Shown here piece by piece: positions 41,904 through 48,434 of a stretch of DNA of 64,000 nt. The notes beneath the pieces are model-generated. The model did no database searches, was not told the origin of the DNA, and saw only the letters and a list, made by a program, of their open reading frames with translations. The position numbers were made by a program, and so were the translations under genes. Numbering within the stretch: the first letter of the stretch is position 1; each line of letters starts with the position of its first letter. Source of the stretch: Dictyostelium discoideum (Eukaryota); NCBI GenBank assembly GCA_000004695.1, contig CM000152.2, positions 5,344,001 through 5,408,000 of the forward strand, read 5' to 3'.

Positions 41904-44900
41904 TTAACCAATAAGGTTTTTAATAAATTCAAAAATGTGATTATTATGATTATCTTTAGCATTATTTAAAATAATTTGATAATCAAGATTTGAAAGAAAT
42001 CCTGCCATTGAATTAGACTTTTTTAATAATAAATTTTGATGATTATTGTATAAATGTTGAAAAATATTTATTCTCCCAAATGAAGATGCTTTTTTTAATA
42101 TTTCAATTAGGTTTTCTTTTAACATATTAAAATCATGAAGATCGGTTGATGGTTCCTTTGATTTTCCAATTATTGGAATACCAATTAATTGTAAAAAAAA
42201 TTCCAATGAAACTACATCACCTAATCTACCAATTTCTTTTGAAACCTTTTTAAATGAATTTGAATTTGGTAATAGATCATCTGGACTTTCTTGATAAAAA
42301 TTGTCACTACCTTTCTCTAGTAGGTTAATTATATTACCAGCTTTATACAATACCACTGGTACACATTGACATCTTTTAACAATACCTTGTAAATCTTGAG
42401 GCCTCTCTAAGAAAATCCAATCAAAAAATTGTTTTAATTGAGATGGCTTTTTAAATAAATCATATGGATAATAGGATACTTTTGTATTATTTATAATGAA
42501 TTTAATATCAGTAAAAACCATTTTAAATTGTTTATTTGTACAATCACCAGATAATGCAACCATTCTTAATACTGATTCATCTTGAATTACATTGTAATTT
42601 TTATGTATATTTTCAACTACATATCTTAACATTTTAATATAATCATAAAATGTTTTAAAGTCAACTCCAAATCCAACTATACTATTTATAAATTTCATTG
42701 GACTTGAGATTGTTACATTTTTCATTATCATCACTGAATTATTATTATTATTATCATCATCATCAGTATGTTGTTGCTCAATCAGTGAAGAATCATTAAT
42801 TTGATATCTTTGCTTTTTCCTATGTATTGCTGCTAATACTAATCTGTCATGTAATTCTAATAATTCGGTATTACAAAACCCAAAGAAATCACAAACTTGA
42901 GTTGGTATATTTGAAGTATAAATATAATCGAAATGATCGAAATGATTGCTAACACAATATCTTAGCATTCTTTCAGATTTAATAAACCTTTGAATTTTAA
43001 GATCATTAAAAACTGAATATTCAACTATAATTTTACTTAAATCCGAGTAATTTTTATCAACAAATTTGATTAAATTTAAATCATCAAAATCTATTAAAAG
43101 GTAAAATAATAGAAACCTATTTTGATTTGAACAATTATTATAAATTTGTTTAATAAAATCGATTTGTTTCTTACTATCATGTGGGCAATGTTTGAATAAT
43201 AAATTTAAATTGCCATTTTTTAATTTAATAATATTCAAAATATACTTTGAAGTAATATTTATATTTTTTACCCAATAATAACTTGATCCATAGATTAATG
43301 ACTTTTTTAAATAAACTTGATTTAAAAAGTTATTTTTACTAATACAAATATTATCTTGATTTTGATAGGTATAAATATAATGAAACATAAAGTTACAATA
43401 CCTTTTTGAATATGAATCTATTGATAAATAAAGTTCCAATAGTAATTTAATATCATTTGATAATTCTTGCCCATTATTTTTATATATTAATTTAATTTTA
43501 GTATTTAATAATTCTTTTGAAAACTTTTTTTTTATATTTTCAATTTCTTCCATTGTATTTATTAATGATTTTGATGTTTTAAAAATAGGTTGTTGATCTT
43601 TATTTTGATGATGTTGATGTTGGTGTTGATGTCTATGTTTATTTCTTTGTTTTAAATCAAATGTTATAATAATAGAACAAGAATTTATTAATTCTTTAAG
43701 AGAATAATTAAAAATTGATTTTAAACCTTTACTTTTTAAATCTTCTTTTAAAAATTTACTATTTTTTAATAATGATTTTAAAAATATTGTATTTCTATTA
43801 ATCTCTGTATCTGATGTATAAATATCTTCTTCATCTTCTTCTTCATCATCATCATTATCATCATCATGATCATCATCTATTTTCTTTCTTTTTTTATAAT
43901 TTGGTTTATCTAATGTTATTTCAAAATTATTATTTAATATTAAATTTGAGATACCTGAATTTACTAATAGTTTTACATTTTCCAAAGTTATTATATTTGA
44001 TTCTAATAAATAATTTATAATTTTTAATGGTGGATTATATAAATTCTCTAATAAATAATTTGTTAATGGTTGTTCTAAACCAAAATCATCAGAGTTTCTA
44101 AAATTTTTAACTTGTGATACAATTAATTTTGTAAATTTTAATGATCTTGTTTTTGCAATTGCTAATAATGAATCATCTAATCCAAAACCAGTGATTTTCA
44201 ATTGTTCTATTAATACTATCAATGGTTCAATACATTTCTCATTTATTGATTCATTAATTAATTCTGAGATTTTAAATTCTTTTTCAATTTGTTTATAATA
44301 GTTTTTAAATAATTGTTGATAAAATAAAATAATTTCATTATGATTCTCTTTTGATGAACCATTGAAAAATTTAAATAGAAATTTAAAATATTTTATTTTA
44401 AAATTTTCTTCTCTTTTCATAACAATCTCTCCATTTGATCTATGATCTGAAAAAAGAATTAGTTCATTTCTTTTTATTTTATATTTTAATAATTCAAAAT
44501 AACCAAATTCAATCATCCATGAAAAATGAATTATATCTTTATATTTAAAAATGGAAATTCCATAAATTTCATTACTTGGTCTACAATTAGAAATTTTTGA
44601 GAATATCTCTCTAAAAAGATATTTATCTTTAAAAACTCTCCAAAATAATTTTTCTACTTTTTCTTTTACCTTTATTGGTAAATTACAATAACTTTTTTTT
44701 CTTGTATCATTTTGTCTTTCTTTTTCTTTATTAGTTTTAAAATCATTTATAAAATTTTTTATTCTTTCTAAACATTTGATTTTTGATGTATGTTTCCCAG
44801 GTTTTATACCAAAATTATTTAAAACAATTATTAATTCTTTTTTATTTTTTTTTTTTAACTCTTCTAAATTAATTTCATTTATAATTTTTTTTTTTTCTTT

Positions 44901-44939
44901 TTTTGAAATTATCTCTATAAATTTATGAGTTTGTTTCAT
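41904..44939 (-). CDS. hypothetical 1011-aa protein, member of a lineage-specific family; tandem paralog of 45429..48434
   Basis: It aligns collinearly with the adjacent gene. N-termini: ...ELIIVLNNFGIKPGK...EKLFWRVFKDKYLFREIFSKI versus ...EMIDKLNNYGISIKPKIGK...ERLFWSVFRDKSLLDKIVSYL. C-termini: ...ILKKASSFGRINIFQHLYNNH versus ...LMNASRYGRLNIFQYLYFNY. Both have internal acidic D/E-rich tracts. Confidence 0.65.
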   Translation of the reverse strand: MKQTHKFIEIISKKEKKKIINEINLEELKKKNKKELIIVLNNFGIKPGKHTSKIKCLERIKNFINDFKTNKEKERQNDTRKKSYCNLPIKVKEKVEKLFWRVFKDKYLFREIFSKISNCRPSNEIYGISIFKYKDIIHFSWMIEFGYFELLKYKIKRNELILFSDHRSNGEIVMKREENFKIKYFKFLFKFFNGSSKENHNEIILFYQQLFKNYYKQIEKEFKISELINESINEKCIEPLIVLIEQLKITGFGLDDSLLAIAKTRSLKFTKLIVSQVKNFRNSDDFGLEQPLTNYLLENLYNPPLKIINYLLESNIITLENVKLLVNSGISNLILNNNFEITLDKPNYKKRKKIDDDHDDDNDDDEEEDEEDIYTSDTEINRNTIFLKSLLKNSKFLKEDLKSKGLKSIFNYSLKELINSCSIIITFDLKQRNKHRHQHQHQHHQNKDQQPIFKTSKSLINTMEEIENIKKKFSKELLNTKIKLIYKNNGQELSNDIKLLLELYLSIDSYSKRYCNFMFHYIYTYQNQDNICISKNNFLNQVYLKKSLIYGSSYYWVKNINITSKYILNIIKLKNGNLNLLFKHCPHDSKKQIDFIKQIYNNCSNQNRFLLFYLLIDFDDLNLIKFVDKNYSDLSKIIVEYSVFNDLKIQRFIKSERMLRYCVSNHFDHFDYIYTSNIPTQVCDFFGFCNTELLELHDRLVLAAIHRKKQRYQINDSSLIEQQHTDDDDNNNNNSVMIMKNVTISSPMKFINSIVGFGVDFKTFYDYIKMLRYVVENIHKNYNVIQDESVLRMVALSGDCTNKQFKMVFTDIKFIINNTKVSYYPYDLFKKPSQLKQFFDWIFLERPQDLQGIVKRCQCVPVVLYKAGNIINLLEKGSDNFYQESPDDLLPNSNSFKKVSKEIGRLGDVVSLEFFLQLIGIPIIGKSKEPSTDLHDFNMLKENLIEILKKASSFGRINIFQHLYNNHQNLLLKKSNSMAGFLSNLDYQIILNNAKDNHNNHIFEFIKNLIG

Positions 44940-48400: not shown

Positions 48401-48434
48401 TTGATATTCCATAATTATTTAATTTATCAATCAT
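45429..48434 (-). CDS. hypothetical 1001-aa protein; tandem paralog of 41904..44939
   Basis: Same family evidence as the 41904..44939 entry. Similarity to the paralog continues about 17 codons upstream of the annotated ATG, where the in-frame sequence hits a stop. Confidence 0.65.
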   Translation of the reverse strand: MIDKLNNYGISIKPKIGKGNSQMIVNEGERENKERLFWSVFRDKSLLDKIVSYLAECIQGKPKLTSFKYYNIVHIKWMLDNDYIELIQDKVFRNETLLFGAYKSEDMTKEEVVSILFKKVNQKNCKNSEEIEKQLKFYQLLVHRFGNEIFKGINGGIQGLLELAITAKNSIALIVLFSMIESNYTLTDEILLNSFKCTIKVNSFSMIKLITFKIIKKDYQIIRNYQEVTNTTFEQIFQSIINPSIKIINFLIDIGIVMFSFKRDDSPPICFDSILVKSNSNTLASEISTRKKNLRFVKEYKTIIGESGFINSNCGVISIEMDKHEPHPSRPSIFNKNSLKEIINACYLNINFNYDKNSPLLKRQIETLFLFYPVFYSTVEVISIITNRIEAVRNCFSKEQLSLKLKHLIKIYPEDSIQFKGINCLVSFYLSFDFQSKFYCLYLHYLIFGNFISNINSDVLNVLPKDFDLNYFEKSLKYGSSIYCAKFKNEIARNFPKLVKDKKFFILFKHCDKNSVASRYKKLEFFRTIINQQSHSTERCNFALFCLLISTNDLELIEAACNEFTVFKEGFSYDFRDKQSNLYKYCNQMYFKVKITIIDFIKTVEVSHFTLQNYLYLFKDFEKDFQVKHFKSSEVFIHYCQTFLSNYRGNNGQLVFIDTHVGDNMDLKSYNSFWNIVAFLIRNPLNINFKIIDPYTLFFNITLKISNINVDNNNNSAVMNSNQRDYEIFNNIFENIKYVITNYQPNGYIVYYKPSSLFGGDLYWCNKLIDWIFDNAKDDIINKRCKIEESDLIKCGKFNYLFYERGYYYFDSIRNRYLPFSGHPILDSGRLGNINLLHLFLNTSGLQIFEKEANREDRVRKQKGKKDKESSSSGSSIGNPSSSGGSDFYNLDDSENESDSENNNEIEDDMKSIYRFKEDFTSILMNASRYGRLNIFQYLYFNYPFLVSKRSWIAADNLVSKATRFGLLQNTTFQNIGKTAEDNGKSSYSLNFLINFILRFL

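Follow-up and report, generated by a model that had tools for sequence, protein, structure and literature searches.

A Long Asn-Rich Gene, Probably Split by a Single Base, beside an Intact Paralog on Chromosome 3 of Dictyostelium discoideum

Do two neighbouring reading frames of about 1,000 codons each represent a pair of equal, tandemly duplicated genes, and where does the second of them begin? The question is raised by a stretch of chromosome 3 of Dictyostelium discoideum AX4 (contig CM000152.2, positions 5,344,001 to 5,408,000; 64,000 nt, hereafter the window, within which all positions are counted), where two open reading frames (ORFs) lie next to each other on the minus strand at 41904..44939 (copy 1, 1011 aa) and 45429..48434 (copy 2, 1001 aa). 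An earlier note, made from the letters of the sequence, had described them as tandem duplicated genes of an unrecognised family, the second with a doubtful 5′ end. Both ORFs are present, in a window of ~20% G+C with poly-Asn (asparagine) coding tracts. Our analysis points to two genes and not to two equal tandem copies: copy 1 (Gene A) is an intact gene, and copy 2 is most probably the tail of an ancestrally continuous gene of ~2882 residues (Gene B).

The earlier note had placed an in-frame TAA ~17 codons upstream of ATG 48434, the annotated start of copy 2. This stop is absent, and the frame of copy 2 stays open. The minus-strand translation in the frame of ATG 48434 reads ...NNSLYGKDNEGFSNQINDNFNFYKSQGNNILEDFNLNNFQTNDKILKE-M-IDKLNNYG..., so that the peptide preceding the ATG is ...GNNILEDFNLNNFQ... 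and not RRFNLNNFQ; both the "RRF..." peptide and the TAA fall in a neighbouring frame. The T-run in which a one-base change had been suspected, given as gatttaattt, is actually gattttaattt with four T, and nothing is amiss near 48480; the false change of frame arose because one T had been dropped from the TTTT run. The frame upstream is indeed N-rich, as had been noticed, but it is copy 2's own frame and not a neighbouring one. Over the 505 codons upstream of 48434, up to 49949, there are zero stops and zero ATG, GTG or TTG codons; AAT occurs 280 times in the copy 2 frame versus 1 and 4 times in the other two, and all 27 runs of at least three AAT are in phase with copy 2. The three real intergenic spacers of the window carry 10-19 stops per ~150 codons in every frame. 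Furthermore, a promoter-like spacer of A/T homopolymers precedes 44939 and 54078, but not 48434. The stretch 48435..49949 is coding sequence, not an intergenic spacer. Similarity to the N-terminus of copy 1 does continue upstream of ATG 48434 (ILEDFNLNNFQTNDKILKEMIDKLNNYGI against IINEINLEELKKKNKKELIIVLNNFGI), although it is weak. The doubt about the true 5′ end of copy 2 was well placed, since the annotated ATG 48434 is not that end. Among the solutions offered for it, a shorter N-terminus is unsupported, an unrecognised upstream exon applies only insofar as the whole upstream ORF belongs to the same gene, and a one-base frame problem is indeed involved, but its place and mechanism had been mistaken: the break lies 1.5 kb further upstream, at 49930-49949.

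At that point, the frame of copy 2 meets an upstream ORF of 1383 aa, from which it is offset by one base. The copy 2 frame opens at 49949, 20 nt before the upstream-ORF stop at 49927-49929, and only in the interval between them does the loss of one base join the two long frames. In the window as given, no single frame is open from ATG 54078 to the stop at 45429, as the TAA at 49927-49929 and the one-base offset interrupt it. Removing the A at 49936 yields a 2882-codon ORF, 54078..45429, with zero stops. The corresponding locus of assembly GCA_054883475.1 (hereafter L001), reached through a neighbouring ML gene, is 99.5% identical to the window across 20.4 kb and lacks precisely such a base: one A of the AA at 49935-49936 is missing there (TTAGAAGTTT in the window, TTAGAGTTT in L001). 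From 50647 to 45506, this A is the single difference, and in L001 one frame runs without a stop from locus position 2 to 5275, through upstream ORF, junction, Asn-rich linker and copy 2. A random isolated deletion in the 9.2 kb compared would strike the ~20-nt interval in ~0.2% of cases. GCA_054883475.1 was produced in a Nanopore plus Illumina project, and the laboratory strain AX2-214 was among those covered (PMC12745789). We infer that L001 is AX2, from its proteins identical to those of AX4 and from the 99.5% identity, which matches the AX4-AX2 figure in the same study (PMC12745789).

A chance error is far less likely to create a 2882-codon ORF than an error or mutation is to break one, and the extra A is therefore read as the error or mutation. 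Gene B would be ancestrally continuous in either case, whether the extra A is an error or a mutation of the AX4 lineage; on balance, we favour a reference-type sequence error. Gene B would then run from ATG 54078 to the stop at 45429-45431 and encode ~2882 residues, of which the N-terminal 1860 would be very Asn/Gln-rich and carry one well-preserved and two decayed SAP/HeH motifs, followed by the family domain of ~1000 residues. The extra A at 49935/49936 would bring the TAA at 49927-49929 into frame and leave the downstream 1499 codons without a start codon. ORF-breaking single-base indels occur more than once in the window sequence, as a second broken gene at 37150..39925 (plus strand) indicates. 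In L001, its two ORFs, 37150..39087 and 39230..39925, are joined in a single-exon ORF of 925 aa, whereas one base is missing from the window at each of two GGTAC sites, ~39058 and ~39128, 70 nt apart (CAGGT-CTGG and AATGG-ACATT), and the two missing bases produce a short out-of-frame patch with a stop. This split is probably a sequence error in the window's source, or else it is hidden by an artificial intron in the annotation.

Copy 1 is an intact single-exon gene with a sound gene model. Its ATG has a stop 5 codons upstream of it, the spacer preceding it is a typical A/T-homopolymer Dictyostelium promoter region, and a wild-strain ortholog, KAM9959538.1 (1030 aa), has 96% identity to it and the same annotated start. 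That the two copies are collinear paralogs with shared landmarks, as had been claimed, is borne out: BLASTP aligns them with E=3e-42 and 26% identity across 1043 columns, the collinear alignment beginning at copy 1 residue 92 and copy 2 residue 30 and reaching both C-termini, a MAFFT pair gives 33% identity, and W/C landmarks, acidic tracts and a C-terminal ...GR(I/L)NIFQ(H/Y)LY block are common to both. Beyond adjacency and common strand, the label "tandem duplicated" is weak. Adjacent copies of a recent tandem duplicate would be each other's closest relatives, but in the family comparison copies 1 and 2, at 28% identity, are no closer mutually than to other members (21-36%; copy 1 versus members at other loci or in other species 24-36%, copy 2 versus those 21-30%). 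Judged from these identities, a local duplication, if any, would be old, and the family appears roughly equidistant throughout. No further copy of this type is present elsewhere in the window.

An exhaustive profile search of 1.84 billion cluster representatives returned 11 matches, nine of them from D. discoideum, D. citrinum or D. purpureum, together with one EukProt entry and one spurious leucine-rich repeat protein; all named family matches are "hypothetical" or "uncharacterized". The family thus sampled appears to be fast-evolving and found only in dictyostelids. The earlier statement that no motif could be placed in a known family stands for the whole proteins, as neither copy 1 nor copy 2 has a whole-protein Pfam match, but not for their modules, of which the N-terminal one is SAP/HeH-like and part of the predicted fold ankyrin-like. 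Most full-length members start with the motif INL.ELE.K...ELI.V.K.LG...K.E...RIKN.I..FK, followed by a linker and then by an LFWKVFKNK...WM.DN..ELL block. A layout of SAP/HeH-type motif, variable low-complexity linker, all-alpha helical-repeat body and ankyrin-like C-terminal repeats is supportable. An F-box-like reading of the LFWKVFKNK block was dropped, with no Pfam support at E≤1.

The motif was traced with a hidden Markov model (HMM) built from P0002, P0004, P0006 and P0007 only, which are family members at other loci; a second HMM, with the copy 1 and upstream-ORF motifs added and P0006 left out, was used for weaker motifs. Through the family profile, copy 1 (33.5 bits) and the upstream ORF (29.7 bits) are homologous to a bona fide SAP motif. 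The half-motif at 48434 scores 5.2 bits against the second HMM, where shuffles have a mean of -1.8 with a standard deviation of 2.9 and a maximum of 7.6 (z ~2.4). From 29.7 bits on the upstream ORF versus 5.2 beside copy 2, it follows that the upstream ORF supplies the family's N-terminal module and that the motif at 48434 is a decayed relic. Such an arrangement would be expected of a single long gene in which an Asn-rich linker has expanded. The link to SAP proper comes from P0007 of D. citrinum, the motif of which passes the Pfam cut-offs for SAP (28.8 versus 23.9 bits) and SAP_new25 (27.8 versus 26.3); two other members have weak Rho_N or SAP_new25 matches. Among PDB sequences, the motif profile ranks the Rho N-terminal HeH domain first (E=0.015), with an SLX4 chain also among the matches. 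In the AF2 model, the copy 1 motif comprises a helix at 33-42, a Gly-containing loop at 43-52 and a helix from 53, with a predicted local distance difference test score (pLDDT) of ~66-77. The predicted N-terminal helix/Gly loop/helix of ~35-50 residues would be shared with SAP/HeH proteins (PF02037 SAP, PF18953 SAP_new25, PF07498 Rho_N; SAF-A, PIAS and the Rho N-terminal domain). By contrast, the window motifs are tied in solely via the family profile, the family motif has a signature of its own (INL.ELE.K...), and Gene B has three copies in unequal decay.

For the ankyrin-like repeats, the Pfam ankyrin threshold is not reached: Ank_5 matches copy 2 only, with E=0.025 and 15.4 bits versus a cut-off of 27, and Ank_KRIT1, at E=0.017 in one family member, is below threshold. 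A profile of the C-terminal block ...A..yG.lNIFQHLY... finds ankyrin proteins only among PDB entries (E 0.25-0.6), and a profile of both copies against PDB sequences finds noise only. In the predicted structure, stacked helix-turn-helix repeats superpose on solved ankyrin domains; a Foldseek comparison of the copy 1 model with the PDB gave no significant match, only generic solenoids with a template modelling (TM) score of ~0.15. The SAP motif would anchor the protein on DNA or chromatin, with protein partners recruited by the helical-repeat/ankyrin surface. From the modules alone, we infer that the family proteins are nuclear scaffolds or adaptors. A protein named Q54SZ7 / DDB_G0282111 has been detected as ubiquitinated (K700) and proteasome-associated in AX2 (PMC10252828), and one of the loci described here may be DDB_G0282111 / Q54SZ7; the sequence of identifiers along the chromosome would favour copy 1. 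A lysine at position 700 is absent from copy 1 (K708, K709), copy 2 (K690, K704) and the upstream ORF (K694, K702); either the database uses a model other than the plain ORFs, or DDB_G0282111 is another gene.

A number of observations weigh against the reading given here. The protein collections yielded no entry that includes copy 2 or the upstream ORF, so the 2882-aa model has no independent annotation there. Neither the three ORFs nor the fused 2882-aa product had an exact match in a protein collection, and word-indexed searches for homologs of copy 2, of its 760 non-repetitive residues and of the unique C-terminal 157 residues of the upstream ORF were all without matches. The sole annotation seen is a 3832-aa product in L001, which absorbs copy 1 too and ends ~150 nt past the copy 1 stop. 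This model probably is a gene-caller artefact that over-merges upstream ORF, copy 2 and copy 1, and the merging is probably due to a deletion cluster at the 3′ end of copy 2, where L001 5142-5235, equivalent to window 45403-45505, has four single-base deletions, one 5-nt deletion and several substitutions within ~100 nt. The cluster, at 45439-45505, destroys the copy 2 stop and the family-conserved C-terminus (SLNFLINFI is lost, versus IFEFIKNLI in copy 1), and looks like a local assembly or polishing error carried into the annotation. With such a cluster in L001, the missing A there could itself be an error; indeed, all indel differences in the stretch of copy 1, copy 2 and upstream ORF are deletions in L001, the Nanopore plus Illumina assembly. 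Degenerate AAT microsatellites could hold phase without selection. The window's own motifs (copy 1 18-72; upstream ORF 564-617 and 1270-1345; the copy 2 half-motif) have no Pfam SAP match, even at E≤10. Finally, the ankyrin signal is non-significant at the sequence level, the structure model is of moderate confidence (pLDDT 57.6), and the proposed function is hypothetical.

If the extra A is real in AX4, a frameshift of the laboratory lineage would end Gene B after 1383 residues and leave the copy 2 domain as an untranslated remnant or young pseudogene tail. This explanation also accepts ancestral continuity and differs solely on whether the break is artefact or biology. Around the A, the window sequence is otherwise clean, the deletion bias and the local error cluster are features of the assembly without it, and neither the ORFs as read nor the fused product appears in the protein collection, all of which would fit such a mutation. 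AX4 and AX2, however, share a recent ancestor, and the mutation would be the sole change in 5.1 kb; no stop or indel has arisen in the 1499 codons downstream, and the two one-base gaps at GGTAC in 37150..39925, 10 kb away, resemble sequencing error. We consider a laboratory frameshift unlikely. A real A might alternatively be accommodated by a short intron close to where the upstream ORF ends, which would restore the frame so that the mRNA encodes one protein of 2842-2869 aa. Frame-compatible GT...AG pairs are present, for example GTAAAAAA...TATTAG from 49976 to 49937 (40 nt, 90% A+T), and further candidates measure 94 nt (from 50030) and 121 nt (from 50057). Dictyostelium introns average ~146 nt, and the clear intron in the window has ~85 nt; 40 nt is far below the usual size, while the two longer candidates are merely 73-78% A+T and would excise ordinary coding sequence. 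L001 needs no intron, and this solution is very improbable.

Copy 2 might also be a standalone 1001-aa gene starting at ATG 48434, with the 1.5 kb upstream a non-coding, degenerate (AAT)n microsatellite that is open by chance. AAT expands in triplets and cannot mutate to a stop by a single substitution, so phase and openness can persist unselected, and ahead of the ATG the resemblance to copy 1 is weak (5.2 bits). Yet there is no promoter-like homopolymer spacer in front of this ATG, non-AAT stretches such as GHNDNDIGNDFDNDNDNDSYIDDDNNVYDNNDGDY and SLYGKDNEGFSNQINDNFNFYKSQGNNILEDFNL are open too, the family motif occurs both upstream of the ATG and in the upstream ORF, and a single-base difference joins the frames exactly; there is little chance that copy 2 stands alone. 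Programmed +1 ribosomal frameshifting at ...AGU UUA UAA U could bypass a real frame break, as the shift needed is +1 and is possible at the stop, where reading of UUA and skipping of the U of UAA would lead into the copy 2 frame. The sister assembly simply lacks the base, we know of no precedent for programmed +1 frameshifting in Dictyostelium, and the probability of this mechanism is close to nil. Scarcely credible, too, is a reading in which the break is real in AX4 and the full-length protein is made by +1 frameshifting (UUA-UAA) or by way of the 40-nt intron, or in which, independently, the family consists of rapidly diversifying chromatin-tethered adaptors with a lineage-specific role.

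The explanation of a continuous Gene B interrupted by one base is an ordinary one: a long gene is split beside an intact paralog, and the family is a lineage-restricted combination of known module types. It resembles other Dictyostelium genes that are split in the reference by single-base indels, or merged or split by annotation, in that the interruption between two long ORFs comes down to a single base, the frame is whole in an independent assembly and a second case lies 10 kb away. The sole particularity is that the break falls at the start of a 1.5-kb poly-Asn linker, and for this reason the 3′ half resembled a separate gene. For the gene models of chromosome 3, the correction would place one gene of ~2882 codons beside DDB_G0282109, instead of an Asn-rich ORF and an orphan 1001-aa ORF, and the model of 37150..39925 probably has the same kind of problem. 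A set of hypothetical proteins from D. discoideum, D. citrinum and D. purpureum can now be grouped into a single family that combines a SAP-type motif with a body that is all-helical and in part ankyrin-like, and the role of nuclear scaffold or adaptor is a first testable guess for proteins so far unannotated.

Table 1. Coordinates of the genes, motifs and intervals discussed, in window positions
Feature	Position	Strand	Evidence or remark
Gene B, full extent as proposed	45429..54078	-	8650 nt; minus one A, 2882 codons plus stop
5′ part of Gene B, a separate 1383-aa ORF here, 40% Asn	49927..54078	-	ends with TAA at 49927-49929
Well-preserved SAP/HeH motif of the upstream ORF, residues 564-617 (...ISVSELETKSNNELIDISRILGLPVHKNHRSEIFFKLFNYL...)	52228..52389	-	29.7 bits, motif HMM
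Second, weaker SAP-like motif of the upstream ORF, residues 1295-1331	50086..50196	-	11.5 bits, second motif HMM
Frame-break interval, the sole stretch where loss of one base joins both long frames	49930..49949	-	frame map
Asn-rich linker (60% N) in the copy 2 frame	48435..49949	-	505 codons, no stops, no start
Degenerate half SAP-like motif spanning the "annotated" ATG 48434	48396..48491	-	alignment; 5.2 bits
Copy 2, C-terminal family domain, residues 1882-2882 of the proposed full protein	45429..48434	-	ORF, alignments
True intergenic spacer between the long gene and copy 1	44940..45428	-	10% GC, long A and T runs, 10-19 stops per frame
Copy 1, intact standalone family member, 1011 aa, single ORF	41904..44939	-	ORF, stop upstream, spacer, wild-strain counterpart
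SAP/HeH-like N-terminal motif of copy 1, residues 18-72	44724..44888	-	33.5 bits, motif HMM
Ankyrin-like C-terminal repeats of copy 1, ~residues 900-1011, including ASSFGRINIFQHLY	41907..42242	-	

Within the upstream ORF, at ~51600..52000 on the minus strand (residues ~700-830), near-duplicate units are found, with QDQYQDHDHEHEHDHDQNQNQNQ occurring twice and a segment of the type NRD.....LS.RDSN.RN.DNSCDFN also twice. They suggest an internal tandem duplication within the low-complexity region; a SEG-masked self-BLAST returned no matches. Two further differences between window and L001 are an excess of 12 nt in the window's T-run at 41578, which lies in the spacer separating copy 1 from the ML gene, and one substitution at 51140, inside the upstream ORF. 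ORFs of 82-346 aa at 48530..49927 (minus strand), 49134..49598 (plus) and 50300..51360 (plus) encode poly-Ile/Val/Leu strings; these are alternative-frame or antisense readings of AAT-rich coding tracts, artefacts of the ORF listing and not genes.

Next to copy 1, exact look-ups identify the minus-strand ORFs 40175..40618 and 41033..41461 as DDB_G0282107 (Q54SZ9) and DDB_G0282109 (Q54SZ8), respectively, which places the window on AX4 chromosome 3; a further exact look-up identifies 9948..13409 as DDB_G0282059. DDB_G0282107 and DDB_G0282109 are a tandem pair with ML / E1_DerP2_DerF2 domains, putative phosphatidylglycerol/phosphatidylinositol transfer proteins. Outside the window, identical sequences of both ML genes were found in GCA_054883475.1 only. 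Both genes vary between wild isolates, with 143-aa, 141-aa and differing 142-aa versions within the same 90% clusters. On the other side of the locus, the promoter-like A/T-homopolymer spacer upstream of 54078 is followed by a divergent plus-strand gene; this two-exon gene, 54887..55610, has an intron of ~85 nt (GTATTT...AAATAG) and a product of ~212 aa.

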